A DNA stretch of 64,000 nt, taken from contig DASXLG010000070.1 of NCBI GenBank assembly GCA_036496425.1, positions 6,087-70,086 on the forward strand, written 5' to 3'. Shown in pieces: positions 926 to 53,699 of this stretch. The translations under genes were made by a program, and so were the position numbers. The first letter of the stretch is position 1. Each line of letters starts with the position of its first letter. Under the pieces are notes generated by a model. It made no database searches. It saw only the letters and a list, made by a program, of their open reading frames with translations, and was not told the origin of the DNA. This DNA comes from Terriglobia bacterium. Lineage in GTDB: Bacteria > Acidobacteriota > Terriglobia > 20CM-2-55-15.

Positions 926-2098
926 ATGCGGTCGATCCTGCACGTCGACATGGATGCGTTCTACGCCTCTGTTGAACAGCTCGACCATCCTGAATACAAA
1001 TCGAAGCCTGTCATTGTCGGCGCCGATCCGAAAGACGGACAAGGCCGGGGCGTGGTTGCGGCGTGTTCCTACGAGGCGAGAAAATTCGGAGTTCGCTCCG
1101 CTCTCCCGATCAGCCGCGCGTGGAAACTCTGTCCGGACGGCGTGTACGTCCGGCCGCGGATGAAGCGGTACGTGGAAGTGTCCGGACAGGTCATGGAAGT
1201 CTTCCGCCATTTCACAGATCTCGTCGAACCGCTCAGCATCGACGAAGCCTTCCTTGATATCACCGGTTCTGTGGCCCTCCTGGGCGCTCCTGTTCAGATC
1301 GCCCGATCGATCAAAGCCGAAATCCGCGAGAAGACCGGTCTGACCGCATCCGTCGGCCTCGCGCCCAACAAGTTTCTTGCCAAGATCGCTTCCGACATTC
1401 AAAAACCGAACGGCTTCGTGGTGGTCGAAGAAAGCCAGATCCAGCCCTTCCTCCGCGATCTGCCGATCTCCAGACTCTGGGGCGTCGGACCGAAAACCGA
1501 GGTGCGCCTGCACGAACTGGGGTTCCGGACGATCGGCGACATTGCCGCAGCGGACCGGGAATCCGTTGTCCGCCGGCTGGGCAGCCTTGGTGAACATCTC
1601 TATCAGCTGTCTCGCGGCAATGACGACCGGCCGGTCGTGCCGGACTGGGAACCCAAGTCGATTTCGAGCGAAACCACGTTCGAAGAGGATACCGATGACC
1701 GGCAGCTCCTGCTCGGTACCATCCTCGAACTCTCCGATCACGTCGCCGAACGCCTTCGCAAAGACAATTACCGCGCGAGGAAAGTAACGCTTAAGCTCCG
1801 CTACTCCAGCTTTACGACACACACGAAACAACAGTCGCTCGAACAACGCGTTCAAACCGGCGAGGCCATCGCCGCCATCGCTCGCGGCCTGTTCTCGAAA
1901 TTTCCGTTGAAGCAGAAGATCCGATTGATCGGCGTCGCCGCCGGCGACCTGCGCCGGGACGGCGAAGACCCGCACCAGTTGACGCTTTTTGCCGAAGCCA
2001 CGGCCCAGAAGGAGAAGGAGAAACTCAGCCACACCGTCGACGAGATCAAACAGAAATTCGGTGAGGGGGCTTTGCGCCGCGGCTCGCAGATGCTGTAG
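926..2098 (+). CDS. dinB: DNA polymerase IV (Y-family translesion polymerase)
   Basis: The N-terminus is MRSILHVDMDAFYASVEQLDHPEYKSKPVIVGADPKDGQGRGVVAACSYEARKFGVRSALPISRAWKLCPDGVYVRPRMKRY, which carries the DMDAFYASVE and SYEARKFGV catalytic motifs. The length is 390 aa. Confidence 0.9.
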   Translation: MRSILHVDMDAFYASVEQLDHPEYKSKPVIVGADPKDGQGRGVVAACSYEARKFGVRSALPISRAWKLCPDGVYVRPRMKRYVEVSGQVMEVFRHFTDLVEPLSIDEAFLDITGSVALLGAPVQIARSIKAEIREKTGLTASVGLAPNKFLAKIASDIQKPNGFVVVEESQIQPFLRDLPISRLWGVGPKTEVRLHELGFRTIGDIAAADRESVVRRLGSLGEHLYQLSRGNDDRPVVPDWEPKSISSETTFEEDTDDRQLLLGTILELSDHVAERLRKDNYRARKVTLKLRYSSFTTHTKQQSLEQRVQTGEAIAAIARGLFSKFPLKQKIRLIGVAAGDLRRDGEDPHQLTLFAEATAQKEKEKLSHTVDEIKQKFGEGALRRGSQML

Positions 2099-2137
2099 AA
2101 AGGAGAAGGAACCACAAGAAGCACAAGAGACACAAGA
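2099..2137. repeat. Half copy (purine-rich arm only) of the GGAACACAAGAAGCACAAG palindromic repeat family, sitting in the dinB-PPIase spacer
   Basis: aaaggagaaggaaccacaagaagcacaagagacacaag lies directly 5' of the PPIase ATG at 2139. The partner arm is absent here. The arm carries an AAGGAG Shine-Dalgarno. Confidence 0.6.
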
Positions 2138-2138
2138 T

Positions 2139-18186: not shown

Positions 18187-18200
18187 TTCCCGTCTCCTGT

Positions 18201-20486
18201 CTACGATTTGAGTTTCTTCTGAAACGCGTCGCTCTGCACGACTCCGAGCACCAGCGACGAAAATTTATAATCGTTCTGAGCGGCCCGCCGGACAATCGTC
18301 CGAACCGCCGGCATGTCGTAGTATTGCACCGTGCGGCCCGTAGCATAAGTCAAAAGCTTCTGCGTGGCCGTGGTTACGAACCTGTCCTTGCGCGACAGCA
18401 GCGCGTTCCGCAGGTCGGCGACGCCGTTCAGCTTTGTCCCATCAACGAGTTGCCCCGACGAATCGATCGGCGTTTTACCGTCGAGCGTGCGCCAGGTTCC
18501 GACCATATCGAAATTCTCCAAGGCAAAACCGATCGGGTCCATGATCTTGTGACAGCTCGCGCAGGGCTCGACTTTCCGGTGCAGCTCCAGCCGCTGCCGC
18601 AACGAGGTGACCTTCACCTGCTCGGCATCCTTTTCCAGATTCGTGTCGATGCCGGGCGGCGGTACCGGCGCCGGCGTACCCAGCACGTTTTCGAGAATCC
18701 AGCGTCCGCGCGTCACCGGCGAGGTGCGCGTTCCAACCGAGCTGACAGTCAGGAAAGAGCCCTGCCCGAGGATGCCGCGCCTTGGACTCGAGGCCTCCAG
18801 AGTCACGCGTCGGAAATAACTGCCGTGGATATTCGGAATGCCGTAGTGCTGCGCGAGGCGTTCGTCCACGAACGTGTAGTCGGCATCGAGCAGCGTCACG
18901 ATGCTGCGGTCCTCCCGAATGATGCTGTCGAACAGCATCTCGGTTTCGCGCTTGAACGCCTGGCGCAGATTGTCGTCGAAATTCTTGGCGGACGTTTCCG
19001 CCTTGGCCAGCTCACGCAGTCCCAGCCATTGTCCGCCGAAGTTGGTGACCAGCGCTGCGGACTTCGGGTCGGCCAGCATGCGCTTCGTCTGCTGCTCGAA
19101 GACTTTCGGATCGCTCAGCCTGCCTTTGATCGCAACGTCGAGAAGCTCATCGTCCGGCATGCTGCTCCACAGGAAGAACGACAACCGCGATGCGAGCTCG
19201 AGATTGCTGAGCCGGTAGACGCCGCCTGCGGCCACGGTTGCGGGCTCGTCCTCGATGCGATACAGAAATGCGGGAGCCACCAGTATCCGCGCGATGGCTT
19301 CCTGAATGCCGGTCTCGAAGTCGGAGTCCTTGCGTCCATGCTGATAGAAACTCATCAGCTTGGTGAGTTCGGCTTCCTGCACCGGGCGGCGAAATGCGCG
19401 CCGCGCAAGCGTGCTCACAACCTGGCGGGCGCAGGCGGGTTCCTCGGCCAGGTTCGCAGGCCGGCAAACGAAGATGCGCTTGCGGCTCGGCGAATCGCCG
19501 GCGCCGGCTGGATTGAACGGCCCGTTGATCACGATCGTGTTGACGCCGCCGGCCGGATTGAAGAGGCCATTGACGCGAAAATCGGAATACGCTTCATCGA
19601 CGCCGGCGCCGCGCTGCCGGTCGATCAGGGCGGCGCCGATCGTATGCGGCCCGGCGGCAATCGCAAGCCGGAAGTTCCGGGTGTTACGCACACCGATCCG
19701 GTTGCCGTCCACCGTAATGTCGGTCGTCGCCCCGCCACCGCCGATGCCGCCGCCAACCGTGAAGTCATACTCGGCATCCATCGGAAACGTATGCTGGACC
19801 AGCATGCCGCCGCGCGTTCCGAGCGGCAGCCCTTCAATATGGCGATCCTGGGCGAAGGCCGGAGGCGCGTTGTACGTCGCCTGCGACGGAATCAGCGTCC
19901 GGTCGCCGACGGCGCGCCGCGAAATTTTCATGGCCGCGGAGATATATCCCTGAATCAACGAAGGCGAGGTTCCCAAGGCGTCCGCGATGTTGTCAAAACC
20001 CTCAGTCGCGTCGTCCTGCGGCAAAAGCGCCGGCACATCCACATCCAGCGCGAGCAGGTCGCGGATCACGTTCGCATATTCGGTACGGTTCAGACGATGC
20101 AACGCCGGCGTGCCGGGATTCGGATGCAGCGCGGCCGCGCTGTCGAGGCGTTTCTCGATTTCCGATGCGAAGGCGTCAAGCTCGGCGCGCTCCGGACGGC
20201 GCGCTCCGCTCGGCGGCATCATCCCGGTCTTGATCTTGCGGACAACCTTTTCCCAGGTGGCGGCATCTTTCGCGATGTTCGAGTAGTCCATGCTGTCGAG
20301 CATGAGACCGGCGGTCTTCGCGCGCTGATTGTGGCAGCCGACGCAGTATTTCGTTGGCAGCGCGTTATCGAGCGGCGGCGCCTGGGCCGCGAAGAGGGGG
20401 ACGGAACACAAGAAGCACAAAAAGCACAAGATTCCCGGGAACCGATTTTGCTCTTTCTTGTGCCTCTTGTGCTTCTTGTGTTCCAT
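18201..20486 (-). CDS. PSCyt/PSD multidomain di-heme family protein (DUF1585/1587/1588/1592/1595-type 'Planctomycete cytochrome C' architecture), module 1
   Basis: N-terminal MEHKKHKRHKKEQNRFPGILCFLCFLCSVPLFAAQA then ...YCVGCHNQRAKTAGL (heme motif 1). Family blocks include NPG.P.LHRLNRTEYANVIRDLL, ILDADYTFVDERLAQHYGIPN and FRRVTL....RRGILGQGS.LT.TS...RTSPV.RG. A second motif, CASCHKIMDPIGFALENFD, lies near the C-terminus. Length is 761 aa. The first 28 codons are encoded by the palindromic repeat. Confidence 0.85.
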   Translation of the reverse strand: MEHKKHKRHKKEQNRFPGILCFLCFLCSVPLFAAQAPPLDNALPTKYCVGCHNQRAKTAGLMLDSMDYSNIAKDAATWEKVVRKIKTGMMPPSGARRPERAELDAFASEIEKRLDSAAALHPNPGTPALHRLNRTEYANVIRDLLALDVDVPALLPQDDATEGFDNIADALGTSPSLIQGYISAAMKISRRAVGDRTLIPSQATYNAPPAFAQDRHIEGLPLGTRGGMLVQHTFPMDAEYDFTVGGGIGGGGATTDITVDGNRIGVRNTRNFRLAIAAGPHTIGAALIDRQRGAGVDEAYSDFRVNGLFNPAGGVNTIVINGPFNPAGAGDSPSRKRIFVCRPANLAEEPACARQVVSTLARRAFRRPVQEAELTKLMSFYQHGRKDSDFETGIQEAIARILVAPAFLYRIEDEPATVAAGGVYRLSNLELASRLSFFLWSSMPDDELLDVAIKGRLSDPKVFEQQTKRMLADPKSAALVTNFGGQWLGLRELAKAETSAKNFDDNLRQAFKRETEMLFDSIIREDRSIVTLLDADYTFVDERLAQHYGIPNIHGSYFRRVTLEASSPRRGILGQGSFLTVSSVGTRTSPVTRGRWILENVLGTPAPVPPPGIDTNLEKDAEQVKVTSLRQRLELHRKVEPCASCHKIMDPIGFALENFDMVGTWRTLDGKTPIDSSGQLVDGTKLNGVADLRNALLSRKDRFVTTATQKLLTYATGRTVQYYDMPAVRTIVRRAAQNDYKFSSLVLGVVQSDAFQKKLKS
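20403..20484. repeat. Palindromic repeat family 1, copy B (28-nt arms, 26-nt loop); it encodes the signal peptide of the module-1 PSCyt gene
   Basis: Arm 1 is ggaacacaagaagcacaaaaagcacaag (20403-20430). Arm 2 is cttgtgcctcttgtgcttcttgtgttcc (20457-20484), which is the reverse complement of arm 1 with one mismatch. On the minus strand it encodes M-EHKKHKRHK-KEQNRFPG-ILCFLCFLCS. Confidence 0.85.
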
Positions 20487-20490
20487 TTCC

Positions 20491-22002
20491 CTAGTTGGCT
20501 TTCGATTGAAGTTTATTGATGAGCTCGATCGAGCTGGGTTTCGCTTTCGCCGGATGCGTGGCGAGGAAAACGCCTTCGGCCCAGTTGAGGGTTGTGCGGC
20601 CTTCGTTATCCTTCAGGTCGAGACGCGCGCCTTTGCTGACAAGCCACTCGAGGATCTCGTCGGAACCGCGATTCGCCGCGCCCATGACGGCAGTAATGCC
20701 CATCGAATTCACATCGTTCACGCTGAGTCCGAGATCGAAGCAAAGCTTCACGGCCTCGAGGAGATTCTTCTGGCCCTCGTCATAGGTCTGATCGACAACC
20801 CAGTTCACGCCGGCGGCGGCCATTAGCGGAGTGGTTCCTCCAAATGTCGCGATTTTCGGATCCGCACCGGACTTCAGCAGCAGGCGCATGACGGTAACAT
20901 CGCCGGAATAGGCCGCGCGAAGGAATGGCGTCTGGCCAGTAAAGTCGACCCATTCGAGTGTGCCGGTCGTGCGGAGCATGAAGCGGCGGATCGGAATACT
21001 CTCCTTTGTCCGGGAATTCGGATCGGCGCCTTTGTCGAGCAACGTCTTGATGAGGTCCAGGACAGGTTCGCGTTCGATGCCGTTTTCAAATGTTCCATTG
21101 TCTTCGTCCATGTTGCGGACTTCGACGGCGGTCCATAGCGGCGTGCGCCCATACCAATCGCTGACGTTGATCCTGGCGCCTTTATCGATCAGAAATTGCG
21201 CCGTCGCCATCTGGTCGTCGGCGATGGCCATCAGCAGCGGCGTGATTCCGTTCGGATCGGCCTTTTCGAGATCCGCGCCGGCATTCACCAGGAGCTTTGC
21301 GGCGTCGAGCCGCCCGTCGCGCGCCGCATAGAGCAACGGCGTGAGACCGCCGGGAATGAAATATCGCGAGCCGCGCGCCGGCAGTCCGCCGCGGATGATG
21401 CCGATGCCGTGACCGAAGCCGGGCACGGAATTCGGAAGAATCCAGCCCGGCGTTTCGCCGGTCCGGGTCTGCGCATTCACGTTGGCGCCATGTTCGACGA
21501 GAAGCCCGGCGACATCCGGATGATTTTCGCGCACAGCGATCATCAACGCGGTCTGCTTGTACAGCGGGTCTTCGGTGTCGACCTTCGCTCCGTGATCGAG
21601 AAGGGCGCGGACGGTTTCGAGATCCCCAACCTTGGAGGCCGTCATCAATGCGGTCTCGCTCGTCGGATCGGTCGTATTGGGATCGGCGCCGGCATCGAGC
21701 AGCAGCCTGGTCATCGCGGCGTTGCCGTTGGAGCACGCAAGGTAGATCGGAGTGACGCCGTAGCGGTCGGCAAGCTTCACGTCCGCGCCCGCCTTAATAA
21801 GGAGACGCGCGGTTTCCAGATCGTCGACGCGCACAACCCAGTGGAGCGCCGGAGTGCCGTCGGTTCCAGGCGCGTTGACATCGACCTTTTGATTCAGCAT
21901 CGAGCGGACGGTTGCCATGTCGCGGTGCGCGGCCGCATCCGCCAGGTTTCCATAAGCGATCAATGACGCCAGCAGGATTGAAGGGATCATAATGGTGTCC
22001 AT
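20491..22002 (-). CDS. Secreted ankyrin-repeat protein, module 1
   Basis: Signal-like N-terminus MDTIMIPSILLASLIAYGNLADA. At least 10 ankyrin repeats are present (e.g. DGTPALHWVVRVDDLETARLLIKAGADVKLADRYGVTPIYLACSNGNAAMTRLLLDAGADPN). The stop is 4 nt before the PSCyt start. Confidence 0.85.
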   Translation of the reverse strand: MDTIMIPSILLASLIAYGNLADAAAHRDMATVRSMLNQKVDVNAPGTDGTPALHWVVRVDDLETARLLIKAGADVKLADRYGVTPIYLACSNGNAAMTRLLLDAGADPNTTDPTSETALMTASKVGDLETVRALLDHGAKVDTEDPLYKQTALMIAVRENHPDVAGLLVEHGANVNAQTRTGETPGWILPNSVPGFGHGIGIIRGGLPARGSRYFIPGGLTPLLYAARDGRLDAAKLLVNAGADLEKADPNGITPLLMAIADDQMATAQFLIDKGARINVSDWYGRTPLWTAVEVRNMDEDNGTFENGIEREPVLDLIKTLLDKGADPNSRTKESIPIRRFMLRTTGTLEWVDFTGQTPFLRAAYSGDVTVMRLLLKSGADPKIATFGGTTPLMAAAGVNWVVDQTYDEGQKNLLEAVKLCFDLGLSVNDVNSMGITAVMGAANRGSDEILEWLVSKGARLDLKDNEGRTTLNWAEGVFLATHPAKAKPSSIELINKLQSKAN

Positions 22003-22086
22003 TTTATAAACATTGCGAAACGATTGCACGCAGAAAGCCAGTGTGCCAGCGCGGCCGGGCGGTCCGCTGATCAAGCCGCAGCTGCG

Positions 22087-22470: not shown

Positions 22471-22502
22471 TGCTGCCGTCAGAATCGAGTATTTTCGCAA
22501 CA

Positions 22503-35666: not shown

Positions 35667-38099
35667 ATGCGCTATGTGTGCGCGGTTTTGGCTTTCGCGG
35701 TCGCCATCCTGGCCTCGGGGTCGGCGGGCTCCGGTGGTTCCGGTAGTCTTCGAGCCGCGGCGCTGCAGGAAAAGACAGCGGTGACGCCATCTCCTCAGCA
35801 GGCACTCATCAATCAGTATTGCGTGACCTGTCACAACCAGCGCGCCAAGACCGCCAACGTCATGTTCGACACGATGGATGTGAACGACGTGTCGAAAAAT
35901 CCCCAGATCTGGGAACGCGCCGTCCGCAAGCTGCGCGGCGGGATGATGCCGCCACCGGGAGCGCGGCGTCCGGATCCGGGCGCCGCGCAGGGATTCGCAA
36001 CCTATCTCGAAAATGAACTCGATAAGGCGGCAGCTGCTCATCCGAATCCGGGACGCGTCGGCGTACACCGGATGAACCGCGATGAGTACGCGAATGCCGT
36101 CGAAGATCTGCTCGGCGTGCGGGTCGATGCCAGCGCCTTGCTCCCGAAGGATGACATCGCGGACGGCTTTGACAACATCGCCGACGTTCTCAAAGTTTCG
36201 CCGTCATTTCTCGATCAATACATTTCGGCCGCCCGCTTCGTGACCAATGAAGCCATCGGCAATCCCGCACCGAAGACGACCAGCGCCGTGTTTCGCGCTT
36301 CCCGCAGCACGGACCAGAGCGCTCATATCGACGGACTGCCGCTCGGCACCCGCGGCGGAATGCTGATCGACTATCTCTTCCCTGCCGACGGCGAATACAA
36401 GTTCAACATCAACGGCCTTGCCAGTGCCGGGTATGTCCGCGGCCTGGAGTGGGAACACACCGTCGTCATCACCATCGACGGCCACCGCGTCTGGGAAAAG
36501 AACGTCGGCGGCGAGGCCGACATCAAAGAGATCGATCAAAAACAGGCCGCCGCCGTGGCGGCGATTAACGGCCGGTTTCAGAACATTCTGATTCCCGTGA
36601 AGTCCGGACCACACAAGGTCGGGATAACCTTCATCGAACGTTCCTACGCCGAGCCGGACGAAACGCTCCGCTCATTTATCCCGGGAAAACTCGAAGATCG
36701 CATCGCGCGGATCTCGAATGTGGAAGTCCTTGGTCCGTACAACTCCGACGGAGTCACGGAGACGCCGAGCCACAAGCACGTTTTCATTTGCCATCCGGCC
36801 GGCGCCGCTTCCGAATCCGAGCAGACGGCCTGCGCAAAACAGATCCTCTCGGCGCTGGCGAAGCGCGCCTACCGCCGTCCCGTCACGGAGCGGGATCTGG
36901 TCGCGCCGATGGCATTCTACAAAACCGGTAAAGACGAAGGCGGCAGCTTCGACTCCGGCGTCAAGAGCGCCTTGACCGCGGTTCTGTCCAGCCCGAAGTT
37001 CCTGTACCGCGCCGAGACTTTCCCGGGAAACGTCGCAGCCGGATCGAACTATCGCATCAGTGATCTGGATCTGGCGGCGCGGATGTCGTTCTTCATCTGG
37101 AGCCGGTTGCCCGACGACGAACTGATCAATGCCGCGGCCAAGGGACAGCTGACCGATCCGAAAAATCCGCAGGCTCTGAATCAGGAAGTGCGGCGAATGC
37201 TGGCCGACCCGAAGTCGAAATCGCTGGTCACGAACTTTGCTTTCGAATGGCTGAAAGTCCGCAGCATCGACGATATCGATCCGGATGCCATCCAGTTTCC
37301 CAACTGGGACGACAGTCTGCGCGAAGCCTTCAAGCGCGAAATGGAACTGTTCGTCGGCAGCATCATTCAGGAAGACCGCAGCGTGGTGGATCTCCTCACG
37401 GCGAATTACACCTACCTTAATGAACGGCTGGCCCTGCACTACGGAATTCCGAACGTCCGTGGCGACCGCTTCCGCAGAGTCACGCTCGACGATCCGAACC
37501 GCTTCGGACTGTTCGGCAAAGGCAGCATTCTGATGGCGACGTCTTATCCGAACCGGACGGCTCCGGTTCTGCGCGGCGCTTTCGTTCTGGAAAACATCAT
37601 GGGAACGCCGCCCTCGCCGCCACCGCCGGACGTCGAAGGCTTCAAGGAAAACAAGGAAGGCGAAAAGGCGAAAACCGTGCGCGAGATCATGGAGAAGCAT
37701 CGCGCGAACCCGGTGTGCAATAACTGCCACGGCGTCATGGATCCGCTCGGCTTCTCGCTCGAGAATTTCGATGCGATCGGAGCCTGGCGATCGAAAGACG
37801 TTTTCGCGGACACGACTATCGACGCTTCCGGCAAACTGGTCGACGGAACGCCGGTCAATGGACCGGTGGATCTCCGCAATGCATTGCTGAAACATCCCGA
37901 ACAGTTCGTTCAGACACTCACCGAGAAGATGATGACGTTTGCCCTGGGACGCAGCGTGGAGTACTACGACATGCCGACCATACGCAAAATCGTCCGGGAC
38001 TCGGCGAAAGATAATTACAGGTTTTCTTCGATCGTGCTGGGCATCGTCAACAGCCCGGCGTTCCAGATGAGACGAGCGGAAAAGGTTACGAGTAATTAG
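35667..38099 (+). CDS. PSCyt/PSD multidomain di-heme family protein, module 3
   Basis: MRYVCAVLAFAVAILASGSAGS..., then YCVTCHNQRAKTANV. Family blocks include HPNPGRVGVHRMNRDEYANAVEDLL, LTANYTYLNERLALHYGIPN and FRRVTLDDPNRFGLFGKGSILMATSYPNRTAPVLRG. A C-terminal CNNCHGVMDPLGFSLENFD is present. A GGAG Shine-Dalgarno precedes it 11 nt after the MBL stop. Confidence 0.85.
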   Translation: MRYVCAVLAFAVAILASGSAGSGGSGSLRAAALQEKTAVTPSPQQALINQYCVTCHNQRAKTANVMFDTMDVNDVSKNPQIWERAVRKLRGGMMPPPGARRPDPGAAQGFATYLENELDKAAAAHPNPGRVGVHRMNRDEYANAVEDLLGVRVDASALLPKDDIADGFDNIADVLKVSPSFLDQYISAARFVTNEAIGNPAPKTTSAVFRASRSTDQSAHIDGLPLGTRGGMLIDYLFPADGEYKFNINGLASAGYVRGLEWEHTVVITIDGHRVWEKNVGGEADIKEIDQKQAAAVAAINGRFQNILIPVKSGPHKVGITFIERSYAEPDETLRSFIPGKLEDRIARISNVEVLGPYNSDGVTETPSHKHVFICHPAGAASESEQTACAKQILSALAKRAYRRPVTERDLVAPMAFYKTGKDEGGSFDSGVKSALTAVLSSPKFLYRAETFPGNVAAGSNYRISDLDLAARMSFFIWSRLPDDELINAAAKGQLTDPKNPQALNQEVRRMLADPKSKSLVTNFAFEWLKVRSIDDIDPDAIQFPNWDDSLREAFKREMELFVGSIIQEDRSVVDLLTANYTYLNERLALHYGIPNVRGDRFRRVTLDDPNRFGLFGKGSILMATSYPNRTAPVLRGAFVLENIMGTPPSPPPPDVEGFKENKEGEKAKTVREIMEKHRANPVCNNCHGVMDPLGFSLENFDAIGAWRSKDVFADTTIDASGKLVDGTPVNGPVDLRNALLKHPEQFVQTLTEKMMTFALGRSVEYYDMPTIRKIVRDSAKDNYRFSSIVLGIVNSPAFQMRRAEKVTSN

Positions 38100-38112
38100 T
38101 AAGGAGCAGACC

Positions 38113-39423
38113 ATGTTCATCACTAAGAAACATTTGTCACGCCGCACGTTCCTTCGCGGCGCAGGCGTCGCTGTTGGATTGCCGTTACTGGACGCAATGA
38201 TCCCGGCGGGCACAATGCTCGCTCAGACCGCGGCCAAAGCAACGCCGCACATGGGATTCATCTATTTCCCTCACGGCGCGATCATGGATAACTGGATGCC
38301 GGCGAAGGAGGGCGCCGACTTCGACCTGAAGCCCATCCTGAAACCGCTCGAACCTTTCAAGAAGCAATTGACCGTCATCAGCGGCCTGGCCAACAAGCAG
38401 GCGTACGGTCCCGTTCACGCTCTGTCGCCGGGAACATGGTTGAGTTGCGTCCGGCCGCGTGAAAGCCAGGATCCGTACGGCGGCGTGACCGTCGATCAGA
38501 TTGCGGCAAAACACATCGGCCAGGACACGCCAATGCCGTCGATCGAACTTGCCGTGGAAGGCGGCGGACTGGCCGGCGCGTGCGACCGGAACTTCGGCTG
38601 CAGTTATGCGGGAACGATCTCATTCCGCACGCCATCGACGCCGATGCCGATGGAATACAACCCGAGAAAGACATTCGAACGCCTGTTCGGGCAGGGCGAC
38701 ACCCCGCAGGAGCGCAAAGCTCTGGGCAAGCAATATGCCAGCATCCTCGACCTCATCAGCGAGGAAGCCGCCGATCTTCAATCGCACCTGGATCCCCAGG
38801 ACCGCGTGGCGGTCAGCGACTATCTGGAAAGCGTGCGCGAAGTGGAGCGGCGCGTCCAGAAAATGGACGAGCACGATCTGACCAGGCTCGACCTGCCGAA
38901 CGTTCCTCCCGGAACGCCCCCGCTCGACGACCGGCTCAACCTCATGTTCGACATGGTGGCTTTGGCCTATCAGGCGAACCTGACGCGCATCTTCTCGTTC
39001 ATGATGGCCGCCGAGGGCAGCAACATGACGTACAACCACATCGGCGTGCCCGATGCGTTCCATCCCGTATCGCATCACCAGAACAATCCGAAACGCATGG
39101 AAAGCTGTACGAAGATCCAGACCTATAACGCCGGGGTCGTTGCAAAATTCCTGGGGAAACTTCAAAAGATGCAGGACGGCGACGGCACCATGCTCGACCA
39201 TTCGATCATCCTGTTCGGCAGCAACATGAGCAACAGCAACGCTCACAATCACGATCCGTTACCGACAGCGCTCGTCAGCGGATGGAAGACGATCAAGGGT
39301 GGGCAGCATCTGAAATATCCGGAACACACGACGCTTGCGAACCTGCACCTGACGTTGCTCGAACGCGCCGGAATTGTGGAAAACGCTTTCGGAGACAGCA
39401 CCGGAAAGTTATCGGAGGTCTAA
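38113..39423 (+). CDS. DUF1501 family protein (Tat-exported), module 3
   Basis: MFITKKHLSRRTFLRGAGVAVGLPLLDAM, with an AAGGAG Shine-Dalgarno. Length is 436 aa. Confidence 0.85.
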   Translation: MFITKKHLSRRTFLRGAGVAVGLPLLDAMIPAGTMLAQTAAKATPHMGFIYFPHGAIMDNWMPAKEGADFDLKPILKPLEPFKKQLTVISGLANKQAYGPVHALSPGTWLSCVRPRESQDPYGGVTVDQIAAKHIGQDTPMPSIELAVEGGGLAGACDRNFGCSYAGTISFRTPSTPMPMEYNPRKTFERLFGQGDTPQERKALGKQYASILDLISEEAADLQSHLDPQDRVAVSDYLESVREVERRVQKMDEHDLTRLDLPNVPPGTPPLDDRLNLMFDMVALAYQANLTRIFSFMMAAEGSNMTYNHIGVPDAFHPVSHHQNNPKRMESCTKIQTYNAGVVAKFLGKLQKMQDGDGTMLDHSIILFGSNMSNSNAHNHDPLPTALVSGWKTIKGGQHLKYPEHTTLANLHLTLLERAGIVENAFGDSTGKLSEV

Positions 39424-40887
39424 ATGCCCACGATCATTCTTGCCATGCTGCTTGCAGCCGCCGGGCTGGTCGATGCCGTGAAATCCGGCGACCGGACGAC
39501 CGCCCTTTCACTGCTCCAGCAGAAAGTGAATGTCAACGCGCCCGAGGCGGACGGAACCACGGCCCTGCACTGGGCCGTTCAGAAAGACGACGCGGACCTC
39601 GTGGACCGGCTGATCAAAGCCGGCGCCAACGTCAACGCGAAAAACGACTACGGCTCGACGCCGATGTCGGAAGCCGCCATCAATGGCGACGTCGCGATCA
39701 TGGACAAACTGCTGAAGGCCGGCGCCAGCGCCGAATCGTCAAATGCCGACGGCCAGACAGCGTTGATGATCGTCGCGCGCACGAATAACGTCGAAGCAGC
39801 GCGGCTTCTGTTGAATCACGGCGCGAATGTCAACGCGGCAGAAAAGTTCCATGAACAAACGCCTCTGATGTGGGCGGCCGCCGAAGGCCAGGCCTCGATG
39901 ACCAAAGAACTCATCGCGCACGGCGCCGATGTCAATGCGCGCTCTCACGTCAATGACTGGGATCGCCAGGTCACTGCAGAAGCCCGCGCAATCGCTCGGC
40001 CGGCCGGCGGATTGACGGCGCTCCTGTACGCCGCGCGCCAGGGATGCACCGGATGCGCCAAAGCGCTGGCGGAAGGCGGCGCGGATTTGAATCTTGCCGA
40101 TCCGGAAGGCGTGTCTCCCCTGCTCCTCTCCATCCTTAACATGAACTTCGATGTCGCGGCCTATCTGATCCAGAAAGGCGCCAACGTCGACAAATGGGAT
40201 TGGTGGGGACAAAGTCCGGTCTACGCGGCTGTCGACGTGAATACGATTCCTCACGGCGGACGCCCGGACCGTCCTTCAGCCGACGAGACCACCAGCCTCC
40301 AGGTTCTGCAGATGCTGCTCGATAAAGGCGCGAACGCGAACCTTCAACTCAAGCTCTTGCCGCCTTATCGCAACCTTGGCGCCGATCGCGGAGTCGATGG
40401 AATGCTCACCATCGGCACAACGCCTCTGCTGCGGGCCGCCAAAGGCCTGGATGCGCCCGCGATCAAATTGTTGCTCGAACACGGCGCCAATCCGAACCTG
40501 CCCAATACGCGGAATTTCATTCCGATCGTGGCCGCTGCCGGAATCGGATCGAGCGATGCCGATACGCGCGGCTGGTTCAAAACCGACGACGTTCAGCAGC
40601 GGGCCATCGCTTCTCTGGACCTTCTGCTGAAAGCCGGAGGCGACATCAACGCCAAGGATACACAGGGCAAAACCCTGCTGCTGGGCGCCGCATTCTGGGG
40701 TTGGAGTGACGTCGTGAAATATCTCGCCGCTCATGGCGCCGACTTGAGTGCGAAAGATAATCGCGGGCACGATGCCGTCGACACAGCGCTCGGCAAAGCC
40801 GGCGGCAACAGCCGCGGCGGCCAACGCGTCGATGTGCATCAGGACACCGCGGACCTGCTCAAACAACTGATCGCGGCCAAACAATGA
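39424..40887 (+). CDS. Secreted ankyrin-repeat protein, module 3
   Basis: MPTIILAMLLAAAGLVDA. Ankyrin repeats include DGTTALHWAVQKDDADLVDRLIKAGANVNAKNDYGSTPMSEAAINGDVAIMDKLLKAGA.... The ATG immediately follows the DUF1501 TAA. Confidence 0.85.
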   Translation: MPTIILAMLLAAAGLVDAVKSGDRTTALSLLQQKVNVNAPEADGTTALHWAVQKDDADLVDRLIKAGANVNAKNDYGSTPMSEAAINGDVAIMDKLLKAGASAESSNADGQTALMIVARTNNVEAARLLLNHGANVNAAEKFHEQTPLMWAAAEGQASMTKELIAHGADVNARSHVNDWDRQVTAEARAIARPAGGLTALLYAARQGCTGCAKALAEGGADLNLADPEGVSPLLLSILNMNFDVAAYLIQKGANVDKWDWWGQSPVYAAVDVNTIPHGGRPDRPSADETTSLQVLQMLLDKGANANLQLKLLPPYRNLGADRGVDGMLTIGTTPLLRAAKGLDAPAIKLLLEHGANPNLPNTRNFIPIVAAAGIGSSDADTRGWFKTDDVQQRAIASLDLLLKAGGDINAKDTQGKTLLLGAAFWGWSDVVKYLAAHGADLSAKDNRGHDAVDTALGKAGGNSRGGQRVDVHQDTADLLKQLIAAKQ

Positions 40888-41831
40888 GAAAAAGAAAAGG
40901 AACACAAAAAGCACAAGAGACACAAGCAAGACGCATTATTCCTCTCTTGTGTTGCTTTTTGTGCTTCTTGTGTTCCTTTCCCGTCTTCGCCGCCAACGAC
41001 TGCGATCGGCCCTGCCTCAAGACCACCCTCGACCAGTATCTCAACGCCGCCATCAAGCATGACCCGGCGGGCGCTCCTCTTTTCGCCGGCTTCCGCCAGA
41101 CCGAAAACGCCATCGTGGTGCGCACCGGTACCGGCATCTGGAAATCGCTGACCGGCCTCGGCAAGGTTCAGCGCCGTTACTTCGATCCGGTGTCCGGACA
41201 GGCCGCCTATTACGGAATCATCGAAGAAGGTTCAACTGCCGATATCGCGACAGTCCGCCTCAAGGTGGAAGACAAGAAGATCACGGAAGCCGAATGGATT
41301 ATCAGCCGCAAAACCGATATCGGCCTGAACGGCACCGGCCCGAATCTTCTCGATCCCGGGAATCTAGCCGCCAATGCCCCTCCCGATAAACCCATGCCGC
41401 GCGACGCGAAGCTCTCGCGCGCAGCGCTGATGGCCATCGTGAACAGTTATTTCGACGGCATCACGACACACGACGGCTCCATCATCAATGCGTATCAAGG
41501 ATGCACCCGAATCGAAAACGGCGTTACGATGACCGGCCGCGGAAGCCGCGGCGGAGCAACGAGCGATTGCACCTCCGGCCTGGAAACCATCAACATTCTG
41601 AATGTTGCGGCACGCCGCTTCCCTATCGTCGACGAGGATGCCGGCGTCGTCCTGGCGATGGCTGTCTTCATCCGGAAACCCGGCACCACGACACGCCGGA
41701 ACGTTTTCTCGGAATGGTTCTACATCGATAAAGGGAAGATCCGGACGATTTACACTGCGATGTTCTATCCGCCCGCGGAGCTTCCGGTTCCCAACTGGCC
41801 GCCATACGACGGCAACTGGCCGGTGAAATAA
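40884..41831 (+). CDS. Secreted hypothetical protein whose signal peptide is supplied by a palindromic repeat
   Basis: MRKRKGTQKAQETQARRIIPLLCCFLCFLCSFPVFAAND... The ATGA overlaps the ankyrin stop. The mature part (CDRPCLKTTLDQYLNAAIKHDPAG...) has no family I recognise. Length is 315 aa. Confidence 0.55.
   Translation: MRKRKGTQKAQETQARRIIPLLCCFLCFLCSFPVFAANDCDRPCLKTTLDQYLNAAIKHDPAGAPLFAGFRQTENAIVVRTGTGIWKSLTGLGKVQRRYFDPVSGQAAYYGIIEEGSTADIATVRLKVEDKKITEAEWIISRKTDIGLNGTGPNLLDPGNLAANAPPDKPMPRDAKLSRAALMAIVNSYFDGITTHDGSIINAYQGCTRIENGVTMTGRGSRGGATSDCTSGLETINILNVAARRFPIVDEDAGVVLAMAVFIRKPGTTTRRNVFSEWFYIDKGKIRTIYTAMFYPPAELPVPNWPPYDGNWPVK
40899..40976. repeat. Palindromic repeat family 1, copy C
   Basis: Arm 1 is ggaacacaaaaagcacaagagacacaag. 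Arm 2 is ctcttgtgttgctttttgtgcttcttgtgttcc, an imperfect reverse complement. It encodes GTQKAQETQ...LLCCFLCFLCS of the downstream protein. Confidence 0.8.
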
Positions 41832-43087: not shown

Positions 43088-43810
43088 GTGTACCAAGTCC
43101 GTCCGCCTGCCGGAAGCCTCTTGACGGAAAACTGTTTGCCGCGGCATGATTTCAAGGTGAGTACGGCAAGACCTACGAGCCCTGACTGGCCTGAATCTGA
43201 AGGAAGAACGCTGGGCGACCTGCTTTACGCCTCAAGACAGAGGTTTCGTGTTTCCGAGCAGGAGTGGGTCGAACTGGTCAAGGCGATCGCCGGAGGCGAC
43301 CAGCTTGCGCTGCATTCGTTATATGAGCGGACGCATCGGATCGTCTTCACGTTGATCGTACGGATCACTCGCAACCGGGAGACGGCCGAAGAATTGACGC
43401 TCGACGTATTTCACGACGTGTGGCGAAGAGCTGCGGCGTACGATCCCGCAGGTGGAAGCGTCCTCGGGTGGATCATGAATCAGGCGCGATCGCGCGCCAT
43501 CGACCGGGTGCGGTTCGATCAGCGTAAGAAGCGGGTCAACATTTCTGGTGAAGATCCGGTTACGGCCCAGCTTCCGGCCGATCCTCAACAGGCATGCCAG
43601 CTTGAAGAAGAAGCGCGGCATCTGCGAGAGGCGCTCGAGGTACTCACTCCAGAGGAGCGTCAGGTGATCGAAACGGCCTTTTTCTCCGAGTTGACGTACC
43701 ACGAGGTCGCGCAAAAGCTGAGTCAACCTCTAGGTACCGTCAAGACACGGATCCGGTCCGGACTCGGCAAACTGCGGCATACTCTCGGCAGGACTTTGAA
43801 GCGTATATGA
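43088..43810 (+). CDS. ECF (group IV) RNA polymerase sigma factor; the true start may lie downstream of 43088
   Basis: Region 2 is ...ELVKAIAGGDQLALHSLYERTHRIVFTLIVRITRNRETAEELTLDVFHDVWRRAAAYDP. Region 4 is ...LTPEERQVIETAFFSELTYHEVAQKLSQPLGTVKTRIRSGLGKLR. Confidence 0.75.
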   Translation: MYQVRPPAGSLLTENCLPRHDFKVSTARPTSPDWPESEGRTLGDLLYASRQRFRVSEQEWVELVKAIAGGDQLALHSLYERTHRIVFTLIVRITRNRETAEELTLDVFHDVWRRAAAYDPAGGSVLGWIMNQARSRAIDRVRFDQRKKRVNISGEDPVTAQLPADPQQACQLEEEARHLREALEVLTPEERQVIETAFFSELTYHEVAQKLSQPLGTVKTRIRSGLGKLRHTLGRTLKRI

Positions 43811-44388
43811 ATTCGCCAATCCAACAACACGATGGCGAACACCACGACCTGGTGTTCCTCTATGCCCTTCAGGCGCTTCCGACAGCCGAGATTCCCGCCG
43901 CTGAGACCCACTTCACCGGATGCGACGCCTGCCGTCAGGAGTTGGAACTCCTGCGTCCGATTGTAGGGGGCTTCACTGCATGGCCGTCGGACGTCCTGAG
44001 GCCAGCGCAGCCGCTGTGGGAACGCCTGACGCGCCGCATCTCGATGCAAACGGGACAGGAACCTGTTCTGAATCCACCACGAGCACCGGCGCAACCCGAA
44101 TGGGAAACCGTTGTGCCCGGTATCTCCGTCAAACTGCTTGCGACGGATACGCTGAAAAACCGTACCAGCATGCTGGTACGGCTCGATCCCGGAACCGAAT
44201 ATCCCCCTCATTGTCATGCCGGCGAAGAGGAGTTGCATCTCCTGTACGGCGAACTCATAATCAACAACCGGAAACTCCATCCGGGCGATTATTTTCGTGC
44301 TGCGGCCGGATCGGTGGATCATCGCGTCTGGAGCGAGACTGGCTGCACCTGCGTTCTGATCACGTCTAACGACGACGAAATCCTCTAA
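43807..44388 (+). CDS. ChrR-like zinc anti-sigma factor (ZAS domain plus C-terminal cupin)
   Basis: The ZAS motif H-x3-C-x2-C is ETHFTGCDAC. The C-terminal cupin is ...EYPPHCHAGEEELHLLYGEL..., as in the RpoE-ChrR pair. An ATGA overlaps the sigma-factor stop. Confidence 0.7.
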   Translation: MNSPIQQHDGEHHDLVFLYALQALPTAEIPAAETHFTGCDACRQELELLRPIVGGFTAWPSDVLRPAQPLWERLTRRISMQTGQEPVLNPPRAPAQPEWETVVPGISVKLLATDTLKNRTSMLVRLDPGTEYPPHCHAGEEELHLLYGELIINNRKLHPGDYFRAAAGSVDHRVWSETGCTCVLITSNDDEIL

Positions 44389-48277: not shown

Positions 48278-49933
48278 CTACTTCGATGCCGGAGCGCCTT
48301 TTGCGCCCATCAGGGATTGAAGCAAGGCGACCGTCTCCGGGAACGGTTCCGGAGCCGGGCCGCCGCGGGCGCCTCCGCGGACACCCTTCGCGAGATCGAG
48401 CGCCATTCTGCCGTCGGCATCCTTCGCCTGGAGATCGGCGCCGTGCTCGGCGAGAAACTTCACGAACGGCGTGAAGCCGTGCTCGGCCGCGCCGTGCAAA
48501 GCGGTTTCGCCCGGCACCGCAAACGCACTCGGCACCTGGCTGGAACGGCCGCCGCGGCCCGCACCGGCTGACGCGCGCTGAGCCGCGCTGTCCGTCGCCA
48601 CACGACGCGGTTCAGTGAGCATGTGGGCATTGACGTTGGCGCCGGCGTCGACGAGAAGTTTCATCGTCGCAAGCACGCCTTCGTTCGTCCGGTTCCGGCC
48701 GCGCGTGACGCGCGTTCCAAATTCAACACCGGCCGCAGCCATCAGCGGCGTGACGCCTTCTTTACTCGGCAGATCGACCAGCGCGCCGTGCTGGAGTAGA
48801 AGTTCGACAAACTTGGCATCTCCGGCCCGTGCCGCGCGCAACAACGGGGTCGCGCCCTGAGCCAGAATCGAGTCGCCGCCGCGATCCTGAGGTACATCGC
48901 GGTACGGCGGCCGGCGCTTGAGCTGAATATTCGGATTCGCGCCGGCTTCAAGCAACATCCGGCCGACATCGACGGCGGTGAGCTTGTCTTCGCTCGGAAT
49001 CACGGCCATCGCGCCGTTGCCCTTCATCGGAAGCGTGCTGACATCGGCGGCCATATAGACCGGCGAACGGCCGAAGAGATCCCACTTATCGAGGTCGGCG
49101 CCGCCCTTGATCATATACGCCGCAAACTCGAAATGAAGATTCAAGAGAGCCATGTTCATCGGCGTCACGCGATCGGGATCGTCGAGATCCGGATCGGCCT
49201 TCGCCGCGATCAAGGCTCGCGCACATTCGACGCAACCTTCGCGCGCTGCGTACAACAAAGGTGTAAAACCACCCTTGTTCATGTCCTTGGGGCGCGGCTC
49301 GGTGATGACCTTGCGTTCCCATTGGTGAACCACTCCGCGCGCATTCACGTCCGCACCATGTGACGCCAGCAGCTTGATCATCTCCGCCTGGCTCTGCGCC
49401 GCGGCCCACATGATCGCGGACTGTCCGCCCCACGTCTCTTTGGCATTAACGTCCGCTCCCGCATCCAGCAGCCGCTTAGCCGCGTCGACCTTTCCGGCGC
49501 GGGCGGCTTCCATCAACGGTGTTTCGCCGTCCGGGTTCTTTGTATTCGGATCGGCTCCGGCCTTCAACAACGCATCGATGACCGGCGTCGCACCGATAAT
49601 TGAAGCTTCGGTGATCGCCGAGGTGCCGAACTGATTCATCAATTTGACGTTGGCGCCGGCCTTGATCAGCGCGCGCACGAGGTCGAGGTCGTTATTCGCG
49701 GCCGCGTACATGATCGCCGTTGTGCCGTCGGGGCCAACCGTGTTCGGATCGGCCTTCGCGGCTAGCAACTTCAAGGCCGCCGGCCGATCGCCGGACTCGG
49801 CAGCGTCCAGAAGCGAAGGCTTCGCCGCGGTCGCGGCCCTTCCCACGACAAAGGAGACGGAACACAAGAAGCACAAAAAGCACAAGAGAGCCATTCTTGT
49901 GCCTCTTGTGTTCCTTCCCTGTTTCCTCTGCAT
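48278..49933 (-). CDS. Secreted ankyrin-repeat protein, module 4; the N-terminal signal is supplied by a palindromic repeat
   Basis: MQRKQGRNTRGTRMALLCFLCFLCSVSFVVGRAATAAKPS, then ankyrin repeats (DGTTAIMYAAANNDLDLVRALIKAGANVKLMNQFGTSAITEA...). A GGAGG Shine-Dalgarno sits 7 nt upstream inside the DUF1501 3' end. There is a 1-nt spacer between the DUF1501 stop and the ATG. Confidence 0.8.
   Translation of the reverse strand: MQRKQGRNTRGTRMALLCFLCFLCSVSFVVGRAATAAKPSLLDAAESGDRPAALKLLAAKADPNTVGPDGTTAIMYAAANNDLDLVRALIKAGANVKLMNQFGTSAITEASIIGATPVIDALLKAGADPNTKNPDGETPLMEAARAGKVDAAKRLLDAGADVNAKETWGGQSAIMWAAAQSQAEMIKLLASHGADVNARGVVHQWERKVITEPRPKDMNKGGFTPLLYAAREGCVECARALIAAKADPDLDDPDRVTPMNMALLNLHFEFAAYMIKGGADLDKWDLFGRSPVYMAADVSTLPMKGNGAMAVIPSEDKLTAVDVGRMLLEAGANPNIQLKRRPPYRDVPQDRGGDSILAQGATPLLRAARAGDAKFVELLLQHGALVDLPSKEGVTPLMAAAGVEFGTRVTRGRNRTNEGVLATMKLLVDAGANVNAHMLTEPRRVATDSAAQRASAGAGRGGRSSQVPSAFAVPGETALHGAAEHGFTPFVKFLAEHGADLQAKDADGRMALDLAKGVRGGARGGPAPEPFPETVALLQSLMGAKGAPASK
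49859..49914. repeat. Palindromic repeat family 1, copy D
   Basis: Arm 1 is ggaacacaagaagcacaaaaagcacaagaga. Arm 2 is tcttgtgcctcttgtgttcc, a shortened reverse complement. It encodes RNTRGTR-MA-LLCFLCFLCS on the minus strand. Confidence 0.8.
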
Positions 49934-49934
49934 C

Positions 49935-51221
49935 TTAGACCTCCGAAAGAACCTTATCGCTGTCGCCGATCGACTTCACCGGGATATCGTTGCGGTCGAA
50001 GATCGTCAGCAACAGGTTGGCGTGCCGCGAATCCTGCGGATACTTCAGATGCTGGCCGCCTTTGATCTTGCCGTGCGCATGGCCGAGCAGAGCCGAGGGC
50101 AGCGGATCGTTGTTGTGGCGGTCGCTGTTGCTCATATTGCTGCCGAACAGGATCGTCGAGTGATCGAGAATAGTGCCGTCGCCTTCCTGTGCCGCCGCGA
50201 TGTGCTTGATAAATCCGGCAAACACTTCGGTGTGGTACTTCTGGATCTGGACCAGCTTATCCATTTTTTGCGGATTGTTTCCGTGATGCGACAGAGGATG
50301 GAAACCCTCGGCGATGCCGAGGTTCGTGTAGGTGCGCATGCTGGCTTCGCGATCCATCGACATCGTGATGATGCGGGTAATGTCGGCCTGGAACGCGAGC
50401 GACATCAGATCGAACATCAGCTTGAAATGTTCGGTGATGTCGTTGGGCGTGCCGACCGGTGCATCGGGAATGTTCAGTGCCGCGGTGTCCTGTTTCTCCG
50501 CCATCTGGACGCGGCGCTCGATCTCGCGAACCGAATCAAGGTAGTCGCCCACCACAACGCGGTCACGCGCGCCGAGGCCGGCCTGCAATCGTTTGGCTTG
50601 CGCCTGCACACGGTCCAGAATGCTGTCGGTTTCGTGCAGAATTTCCGCGCGTTCTTTATCGGTGTCGCCCTGGCCGAATAGTTTCTGGAACACCGCGCGG
50701 GGATTGCCTTCCTGCGGCAGCGACTGCGTCGGCGTCCGCCAGGACAATCGGGCGCCTCCTTGAGCGGTCGTGAGTTCCAGCGACGGCAGCCGCGTATCCT
50801 GACCGACGTAGCGCACCAGCATCTGATCGGCGGTAACGCCGGCATCCTTACCGGCAACGCCCATATCCCAAGGCTTCACACAGCTTAACCACGTCTGCTC
50901 GATGTAGGCGTGGGGCTCCGGCGTTTCTCCCTGTTTGTTGCGCAAACCCGACACGATGGTCAGGTGCTGTCGATACGGCGCCAACGGCTCGAGAATCGGC
51001 GACATCTCGTAGGCCGTGCCGGTCTCCTTCGGCGACCAGTGATCCATGATTGCGCCGTGGGGAAATCCGATAAACGCGAACCGTTTCGGCGTTGAACCGG
51101 CGGCCGTGGCTGCCCACGCAGTGGCGGCAGGACTCATCGCATCCAGGAGCGGCAGCCCGATCGTGGCTCCGATGCCCTTCAATACCGTGCGTCTCGAAAT
51201 ATGCTTCTTGTCGATAAACAT
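49935..51221 (-). CDS. DUF1501 family protein (Tat-exported), module 4
   Basis: MFIDKKHISRRTVLKGIGATIGLPLLDAM, with the family blocks FIGFPHG and HS.ILFGSNMSNSDRHNNDPLP. Length is 428 aa. Confidence 0.85.
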   Translation of the reverse strand: MFIDKKHISRRTVLKGIGATIGLPLLDAMSPAATAWAATAAGSTPKRFAFIGFPHGAIMDHWSPKETGTAYEMSPILEPLAPYRQHLTIVSGLRNKQGETPEPHAYIEQTWLSCVKPWDMGVAGKDAGVTADQMLVRYVGQDTRLPSLELTTAQGGARLSWRTPTQSLPQEGNPRAVFQKLFGQGDTDKERAEILHETDSILDRVQAQAKRLQAGLGARDRVVVGDYLDSVREIERRVQMAEKQDTAALNIPDAPVGTPNDITEHFKLMFDLMSLAFQADITRIITMSMDREASMRTYTNLGIAEGFHPLSHHGNNPQKMDKLVQIQKYHTEVFAGFIKHIAAAQEGDGTILDHSTILFGSNMSNSDRHNNDPLPSALLGHAHGKIKGGQHLKYPQDSRHANLLLTIFDRNDIPVKSIGDSDKVLSEV

Positions 51222-51247
51222 GACGTATCTCCCCTATCGAAGATTGC

Positions 51248-53692: not shown

Positions 53693-53699
53693 ATTAAGG

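Follow-up and report, generated by a model that had tools for sequence, protein, structure and literature searches.

A REP-like hairpin repeat has probably replaced the n- and h-regions of the signal peptide of an acidobacterial DUF8021 protein

Repetitive extragenic palindromes (REPs) of Proteobacteria, with families tagged by GTAG or CGTC among them, are abundant, short, imperfect palindromes that lie mostly downstream of coding regions, between unidirectional or convergent open reading frames (ORFs); many adjoin a stop codon or overlap it, and some occur within genes (Di Nocera et al. 2013, PMC3733652). An enterobacterial RU-2 repeat, similar to miniature inverted-repeat transposable elements (MITEs), supplies a portion of the signal peptide predicted for Y. 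pestis YPO1552, homologues of which carry unrelated signals in other genera (Delihas 2007, PMC2759123), and Rickettsia palindromic elements (RPEs), as the same paper cites them, are selfish palindromes inserted in frame in coding genes (Ogata et al. 2000 Science, cited in PMC2759123). In Mollicutes and other microbes, ORFs can contain palindromic amphipathic repeat coding elements (PARCELs), domains of 25-residue repeats arranged in tandem (2010, PMC2996958). Here we describe a dispersed palindromic repeat in a 64-kb stretch of DNA from a Terriglobia bacterium (Acidobacteriota; contig DASXLG010000070.1), hereafter the window, and in particular one copy, copy C, which lies at the 5′ end of a gene coding for a DUF8021 protein. 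We propose, with a probability of about 0.7, that this REP-like, stop-proximal hairpin repeat has replaced the native n- and h-regions of the DUF8021 Sec signal peptide.

The copy C gene is joined to the preceding ankyrin-repeat gene, its ATG (40884-40886) overlapping the ankyrin TGA (40885-40887) as ATGA, and the GGAACAC of the repeat begins at 40899, 15 nucleotides (nt) past the A of the ATG. The initial annotation described this arrangement correctly, and ORF 40884..41831 translates into the 315-residue product that it quoted. The arms were also noted to be slightly diverged, which is true of their inner parts (GAGACACAAG versus CTTGTGTTGC); the outer 21 nt are 95% complementary. An RNA fold of 40870-40995 has a free energy of -47.2 kcal/mol, compared with -25.2 +/- 3.6 for shuffled sequences (z = -6.1), and none of 200 shuffles is as stable. 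Read in frame, copy C gives MRKRKGTQKAQETQARR-IIPLLCCFLCFLCSFPVFA/AN, and the product begins MRKRKGTQKAQETQARRIIPLLCCFLCFLCSFPVFA/AN (here and below, the slash marks the predicted cleavage site). The A-rich arm thus becomes a basic n-region and the T-rich arm a hydrophobic core, with the mature protein directly after; the loop contributes two n-region arginines and the beginning of the h-region, and the MRKRK and RR that flank the arms add positive charge. Judged by eye against the criteria for Sec signals and signal peptidase I, the n-region has a net charge of +6, the h-region is without a charged residue, and V34 and A36 occupy positions -3 and -1, such that the signal would be cleaved before A37-N38. 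This putative cleavage site, SFPVFA/AN, is made up of the edge of the element and native sequence. Relative to the family consensus and the orthologues, window copy C carries a GAA to AAA change (E to K), by which a base pair is lost and n-region charge is gained.

The protein behind copy C is one for which a signal peptide is expected. A word-indexed search returned 3257 homologues, and all 120 of those listed, including the identical P0001, P0004, and P0005, have a precomputed match to PF26061, which is DUF8021 in the annotation tables of the orthologous contigs; the view that the protein has no recognised family is therefore superseded, and it belongs to the uncharacterised DUF8021. Local Pfam and NCBIfam scans gave no match, the local Pfam copy being without a PF26061 model. 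A HMMER search found 2141 cluster representatives with homology beginning at about query residue 33-40, and in the homologue alignment conservation begins at about residue 38-40, with the mature protein starting at about NDCDR. A CDR motif is conserved near the N-terminus in 120 of the 120 listed homologues, nearly all of which have an ordinary Sec-type signal before it, different from that of copy C and ending in ..FAA, ..FGA, or ..LAA. This argues that the DUF8021 family is exported and that its mature N-terminus is fixed. We also looked for a conserved protein that starts downstream and is cytoplasmic, which would speak against export, and saw none among the homologues. In the window protein, the only stretch 5′ of NDCDR able to act as a signal is the palindrome, and the proposal that the only export signal is the one encoded by the repeat is supported.

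Structure prediction places the start of the folded protein at about the same position. An AlphaFold model (AF2, 34-sequence alignment, 40884-41828) has a mean predicted local distance difference test score (pLDDT) of 87.9 and a predicted template modelling score (pTM) of 0.83; per-residue confidence is 51-61 for residues 1-40 and ~97 for the remainder, which forms two alpha+beta domains. In Foldseek, each half of the model resembles NTF2-like, ketosteroid-isomerase, and limonene-epoxide-hydrolase chains with a probability of about 1.0, and we predict a tandem NTF2-like fold. The best match in the PDB over both domains is iota-carbonic anhydrase 7c5y_B (E = 2.6e-5, but with a poor TM-score of 0.25/0.18), and a sequence-profile search of the PDB gave no real match, the sole hit being a spurious globin (E = 0.05). 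The invariant residues of the family are C40, D41, R42, C44, T73, N75, D101, R125, E137, R179, C207, R209, E211, and D250; they include two cysteine pairs, and there is no conserved histidine.

The composition of the arms suggests how a hairpin could serve as a signal. Neither arm has a stop codon in any frame. The purine- and A-rich arm codes for polar residues in every frame and for basic ones in two (EHKKHK, NTRSTR, GTQEAQ), and the T-rich arm for uncharged residues in every frame, strongly hydrophobic in two (LCFLCFLCS, VLLVLLVFL); read 5′ to 3′, the hairpin is therefore a ready-made n-region followed by an h-region. Signal peptides tolerate great sequence variation. We envisage that the repeat is a lineage-specific dispersed hairpin family that would normally occupy transcribed spacers just past stop codons. 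Because the ankyrin and DUF8021 genes overlap in ATGA and leave no spacer, the repeat lies inside the 5′ end of the DUF8021 gene, where it would have overwritten the native n- and h-regions and left the native c-region and cleavage site in place. A repeat at such a coupled 5′ end may survive when that end encodes a signal peptide.

Several observations argue against translation of the palindrome. The gene calls of NCBI (P0005, VGK48_04930) and JGI (P0004) give a 287-residue product from a TTG inside the 3′ arm, and a codon-usage gene map also picks TTG 40968, a choice that we attribute to the atypical codon usage of the element. A hairpin of -40 to -47 kcal/mol that starts 12 nt past the ATG would be expected to impede initiation in the absence of translational coupling, and because the arms are free of stops in all frames, an open frame across them is no evidence by itself. 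Together with the extragenic position of most members of the repeat family, these points could be taken to mean that the palindrome is an untranslated intercistronic hairpin, that DUF8021 starts at TTG 40968 or another internal TTG, and that the apparent signal is accidental. We regard this as very improbable. The product from TTG 40968 would begin MCSFPVFA/AN, eight residues with neither n- nor h-region, although nearly all listed homologues have a full signal before CDR. The ankyrin-DUF8021 gene order and the ATGA overlap are shared by the orthologous contigs L076-L078 and L079, and the ATG is kept in the window, L076, L077, L078, and L079, with or without a palindrome; in L079 (P0010), which lacks one, the native signal MRSKRGLTVTATAAATAYLLLPILLIAANAFG/AN could start nowhere else. 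Public gene calls start at this ATG for P0001-3, P0006, and P0010. L076 and L077 carry the long palindrome at 87% nucleotide identity to the window and keep the frame across it despite a 3-nt indel, in agreement with the initial view that copy C is old, and the length remains a multiple of three through that indel and two structurally different palindromes. Translation is thus argued from a start codon that is conserved, a phase that is kept, and a protein that needs a signal. In view of the 287-residue annotations we can only infer it, but we consider that the peptide is probably translated from the ATGA start and would drive export.

Comparison of orthologues suggests replacement rather than insertion. 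The distance from the ATG to the Asn codon is about the same with a palindrome (114 nt) as without (108 nt). The mature proteins of P0006 and P0008 are 100% identical, and their signals differ: that of P0006, MRRGKGTQEPQDVLRFLCILCSFFVSTNAFA/AN, contains a short palindrome (fold -41 kcal/mol), whereas that of P0008, MVVGTRERGLKPATTYLILVFLLLAGNAFA/AN, is ordinary and without one. The corresponding contigs, L078 and L080, have 61 mismatches in 1312 aligned columns, nearly all of them in one unalignable block of ~92 nt that extends from the last four ankyrin codons through the stop/start overlap to the boundary of the h- and c-regions. The alleles differ by the replacement of ~92 nt with ~89 nt, not by a simple insertion, and the few flanking mismatches cluster beside the block, a pattern that would fit the acquisition of an allele through homologous recombination. 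In a tree built from the mature sequences, the palindrome-free P0008-P0010 fall between the window clade, with its long palindrome, and P0006/P0007, in which the palindrome is short, so that this junction either gained palindromes twice or has long been polymorphic. A metagenome scan for close relatives of the protein (51 loci) gave no further palindrome-bearing orthologue, and only L081 repeats the P0008-type native signal. A bolder reading of these data is that the repeat is a recombining cassette that again and again overwrites the signals of second genes in coupled operons on strain-level time scales, acting as both a Sec signal and a hairpin that ties translation of the second gene strictly to the first; this would be a route of signal-peptide turnover and operon-level control not previously described in Acidobacteriota, and we think it unlikely.

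Copy C is not alone in the window. A 28-mer from the 5′ arm has three sites at up to 3 mismatches (0.00 expected), a 15-mer core has 12 matches (0.07 expected), and an 18-mer has 10 (0.02 expected). A profile of the arms finds exactly seven, forming three full palindromes (20403-20484, 40899-40976, and 49859-49914) and a half copy (2106-2138). The two sister palindromes also fold stably (-59.8 kcal/mol, z = -9.3 for 20403-20484; -45.3 kcal/mol, z = -5.9 for 49859-49914). All three full copies front ORFs whose paralogues or homologues carry ordinary signal peptides, and in all three the 3′ arm is read as TTG TGC TTC TTG TGT TCC (LCFLCS); the 5′ arms are read in three different frames (EHKKHK, NTRGTR, and GTQKAQ). 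The start codons of the three genes lie -4, +1, or +4 nt from the stop of the preceding gene: the PSCyt/DUF1592 gene 18201..20486 begins 4 nt past the stop of ankyrin gene 20491..22074 (TAGggaaATG), and the ankyrin gene 48278..49933 begins 1 nt past the stop of the DUF1552 gene 49935..51221 (TAAgATG).

Beyond the window, exact matches to the 18-mer were sought in one genome per species and occur at 75 loci, ~45 of them in a single long-read metagenome-assembled genome (MAG), Acidobacteriota MFD04967.bin.2.116 (CAVTWA01); locus L065 of this MAG is an orthologue of the window PSCyt gene (77% nucleotide identity) with the same kind of beginning. The consensus of the repeat is [GGAA]GGAACACAAGAAGCACAARAGGCACAAGA, a variable loop of 4-30 nt, and TCTTGTGCCTYTTGTGCTTCTTGTGTTCC[TTCC], each arm consisting of three 9-nt units (CACAAGAAG). 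The 51 extracted copies are 46-126 nt long, and the innermost stem and outer flanks vary among copies yet stay complementary. In a crude, home-made codon-usage gene map, the full copies of CAVTWA01 and the window lie between genes that are convergent (7), tandem (20, including the three of the window), or divergent (1), and a stop codon is usually 4-30 nt away. A palindrome of the same family on metagenome contig Ga0126377_10307623 (L131, 150-235) overlaps the 3′ end of a glycosyltransferase-like minus-strand ORF; it encodes the C-terminal tail ...EEGTQKAQDAQRL, with the stop codon in the loop, and the element can thus be absorbed at the 3′ ends of genes as well as the 5′ ends.

We considered several known classes for the element. 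A MITE is not indicated, as the sequences on either side of the copies are complementary to each other rather than direct repeats, and the alleles with and without a palindrome differ by replacement; a search for target-site duplications at the extracted copies and at the L078/L080 block found none. An Rfam scan of 40700-41150 scored at best 26 bits against a threshold of 98, with only generic miRNA-precursor hairpin hits, and we conclude that the element is not a known RNA family. A promoter and terminator scan found nothing, with no terminator-like site in 40500-41300; the stems are rich in A-U and G-U pairs and lead into UUCCCC instead of a U-tract, and the element is not a canonical terminator. 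None of 14 viral-contig hits to the 18-mer has a palindromic partner, nor do the hits in unrelated low-GC genomes, and we take both as chance matches and reject a link to phages.

Some other 18-mer loci deserve mention. Four contigs of the Verrucomicrobiales MAG UBA11399 (L018, L054, L068, and L071) end alike, with the 18-mer ~15 nt from the contig end (...CGCCGGATCACCTCTTGTGCTTCTTGTGTTCCACGTTTCTTG...), as would be expected if an unrelated multi-copy repeat interrupts assembly in this MAG. Long palindromes that are distinct but look alike, made of CACAAAAAG / GCAAAAAGC-type units, are present in further classes of Acidobacteriota, in L063/L066 (Pyrinomonadaceae) and L026/L035/L051 (Blastocatellia), and in L074 (Steroidobacter, a gammaproteobacterial MAG); they may be related families, have spread horizontally, or have converged. 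L070, from proteobacterial bin MFD04967.bin.2.10, has an element and flanks near-identical to those of L014/L050 from Acidobacteriota bin MFD04967.bin.2.116; this looks like a misbinned or shared contig of one sample rather than an independent occurrence.

About 33 genes have a copy at their 5′ side, and 8-10 of them (a quarter to a third) have no hydrophobic N-terminus besides the element; further copies precede genes that are cytoplasmic or possess a signal of their own. Within these 8-10 genes, translation would pass through the element in frame 0 (LCFLCS) or frame 2 (VLLVFL), with mean Kyte-Doolittle values of ~2.6 and ~3.8, and never in frame 1 (CASCVP, ~1.3), an absence with p ~0.02 for ~10 independent cases. 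The initial annotation held that the repeat is not restricted to PSCyt and ankyrin genes, and this is borne out in CAVTWA01, where it fronts an outer-membrane OEP efflux lipoprotein (MKPETEAQEAQKAQERFVLLVLLVFLTALSSC/TVGPKYK, with lipobox LSSC) and genes for a Peripla_BP_2 periplasmic binding protein, Peptidase_M1, Peptidase_M14, an ankyrin protein, and a CxxCH (cytochrome-c-like) protein. Some of the element-encoded n-regions are weakly or negatively charged, as in the L044 OEP protein (MKPETEAQEAQKAQER), which counts against a role as signal. By a home-made hydrophobicity test that is too permissive, 25 of the 33 downstream genes score as exported against a background of 58%, and we draw no conclusion from this figure. 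Long ORFs leading out of the element, counted with no gene model, favour no particular frame, as shadow ORFs in this GC-rich DNA drown out any preference.

The use of the repeat by unrelated exported families raises the question of whether it is a mobile cassette dedicated to signal peptides, which would insert at the starts of genes and be selected for conferring or renewing export signals. Every full copy in the window codes for a predicted signal, palindromes of different structure occupy one junction in two clades with palindrome-free orthologues between them, and the signal region has been swapped at the strain level, as such a cassette would have it. However, most copies in the related MAG are extragenic, including the seven between convergent genes, where no gene starts; many others front genes that are cytoplasmic or have signals of their own; one provides the tail and stop codon of a glycosyltransferase; target-site duplications are not visible; and DUF8021 already had a signal, so that nothing new was conferred. 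We therefore find a dedicated cassette improbable. The term signal-peptide module, used for the repeat in the initial annotation, goes too far: the family is mainly an extragenic, stop-proximal hairpin, of which a minority of copies are read as signals.

A further question is whether selection maintains the hairpin or the peptide, and here the evidence is mixed. The hairpins of the orthologues are still strong (-40 to -53 kcal/mol, z = -5 to -8.6), and there is covariation at one outer pair, which is AAAGG/CCTTT in the window and AACGG/CCGTT in L076 and L077. In favour of the peptide, other substitutions in the orthologues are uncompensated and weaken pairing, and the E to K change of copy C trades a base pair for n-region charge. 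In the CAVTWA PSCyt orthologue, the 5′ arm has decayed and the 3′ arm, which codes for the h-region, is conserved (MEHKTPRQDSTDQGKLDFFTSLCLLCLLCS; -39.6 kcal/mol, z = -3.9). The hairpin might be kept mainly for an RNA-level role in the operon, with signal coding as a tolerated side effect. It could enforce translational coupling, stall ribosomes at the upstream stop, or shield the upstream mRNA from 3′ exonucleases; REPs of Escherichia coli protect upstream mRNA in this last way. This is compatible with the replacement of the DUF8021 signal that we favour, and we hold it as a possibility, though one less likely than not to be the main reason for retention. The compensatory pair, the family-wide complementarity of otherwise variable inner stems and outer flanks, the position of copies 4-30 nt past stop codons and away from divergent promoter spacers, and the close spacing of the three window copies to upstream stops are consistent with it. 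The uncompensated substitutions and the decay of one arm in the PSCyt orthologue speak against it, as do the lack of a U-tract, of a terminator-like site, and of an Rfam match; the hairpins could also have been retained just because the copies are young and the 9-nt periodicity of their arms tolerates slippage. With hairpins of -40 to -60 kcal/mol at the start codon or at most 12 nt from it, expression probably needs ribosomes terminating on the upstream gene, and we speculate that the start-codon hairpin makes expression depend on coupling to that gene.

The features discussed here are collected in Table 1. The half copy at 2106-2138 no longer forms a hairpin (z = -0.6), and the product of the gene at ATG 2141 has a hydrophobic N-terminus of its own, MNLLLLAALLLAPP. 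The half copy may be the remnant of an older palindrome, with a 3′ arm that has since become an ordinary h-region of Leu and Ala, or only part of the repeat may have been inserted. The window contains at least three paralogous operon-like modules (16861-26095, minus strand; 35667-40887, plus strand; 48278-53830, minus strand), composed of abutting or overlapping genes for a PSCyt/DUF1592-family cytochrome-c-domain protein, a DUF1552 protein (HXXSHH, with a signal resembling those of the twin-arginine translocation pathway), and an ankyrin-repeat protein; internal junctions of these modules hold two of the three palindrome copies. The overlapping ORFs 43088..43810 and 43807..44388 resemble, by eye, an extracytoplasmic function (ECF)-type sigma factor and an anti-sigma/cupin-like partner.

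Table 1. Positions in the window of copy C, its genes, and the other copies of the repeat
Feature	Position	Strand	Description
Imperfect palindrome (copy C)	40896-40979	+	Within 5′ end of predicted secreted-protein gene; 78-base repeat, 40899-40976 by arm profile
5′ A-rich arm of copy C, AAAGGAACACAAAAAGCACAAGAGACACAAG	40896..40926	+	GGA ACA CAA AAA GCA CAA GAG ACA CAA = GTQKAQETQ
Hairpin loop of copy C, 19 nt	40927..40945	+	Encodes ARRIIPL
3′ T-rich arm of copy C, CTTGTGTTGCTTTTTGTGCTTCTTGTGTTCCTTT	40946..40979	+	CTC TTG TGT TGC TTT TTG TGC TTC TTG TGT TCC TTT = LLCCFLCFLCSF
Predicted Sec signal peptide, residues 1-36	40884..40991	+	n-region MRKRKGTQKAQETQARR, h-region IIPLLCCFLCFLCSFP, c-region VFA
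Alternative TTG start	40968..40970	+	287-aa product MCSFPVFAAN..., would lack signal peptide
DUF8021 (PF26061) gene, 315-aa precursor, predicted exported, two NTF2-like domains	40884..41831	+	ORF, homologues, AlphaFold model
Ankyrin-repeat gene, 487 aa	39424..40887	+	Pfam Ank_2/Ank, E = 1e-53
Sister copy	20403..20484	-	N-terminus MEHKKHKRHKKEQNRFPGILCFLCFLCSVPLFA/AQ of PSCyt/DUF1592 gene 18201..20486
Short-loop sister copy	49859..49914	-	N-terminus MQRKQGRNTRGTRMALLCFLCFLCSVSFVVGRA/AT of ankyrin gene 48278..49933
Half copy, 5′ arm only	2106..2138	+	10 nt past stop of ORF 926..2098; just 5′ of ATG 2141

At the level of sequence, the observation is well supported by comparative evidence and moderately surprising. 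The evolutionary sources of signal peptides are rarely visible, and here a selfish or structural DNA repeat has apparently been taken up as the export signal of several unrelated proteins; if confirmed, this would be a concrete and repeatable mechanism of signal-peptide replacement. There is also a practical consequence, in that gene callers truncate element-fronted genes at internal TTG or GTG codons, and exported proteins in acidobacterial MAGs are then misclassed as cytoplasmic; truncation like that of P0004 and P0005 is likely in other element-fronted genes of such MAGs. The locus further offers a natural system for how a very stable start-codon hairpin is reconciled with translation. Among open-access papers, we found none that describes the acidobacterial element or a REP-like repeat that systematically codes for signal peptides.

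The closest counterparts share some of these properties. Like REPs, the acidobacterial repeat is present in high copy downstream of ORFs, in tandem and convergent arrangements, and is rare in divergent spacers. It differs in that its arms begin GGAACACAAG, with no GTAG or CGTC tag in the 51 extracted copies, such that by its tag it would not count among these REPs, and in being longer (55-80 nt compared with 20-40), with three 9-nt units per arm; we know of no report of recurrent N-terminal use of REPs as signal peptides. RPEs are similar in being palindromic repeats in frame within coding genes, kept as extra peptide segments, but have no sequence similarity to the acidobacterial repeat. RPE insertions are internal and are tolerated as surface segments of many proteins; to our knowledge, they have not been described as targeting signals or beside stop codons. 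PARCELs likewise combine coding DNA of dyad symmetry with membrane-targeted proteins, but they are not dispersed extragenic hairpins and do not encode the signal peptide itself. The Yersinia RU-2 case has in common with copy C an intergenic palindromic repeat that extends a gene in frame at its 5′ end and contributes to a predicted signal. It is, however, a single anecdotal locus predicted in silico, whereas here there are three loci in 64 kb and several unrelated genes in a related MAG, with two reading frames in use, orthologous alleles with and without the repeat, and arms that map onto the n- and h-regions.

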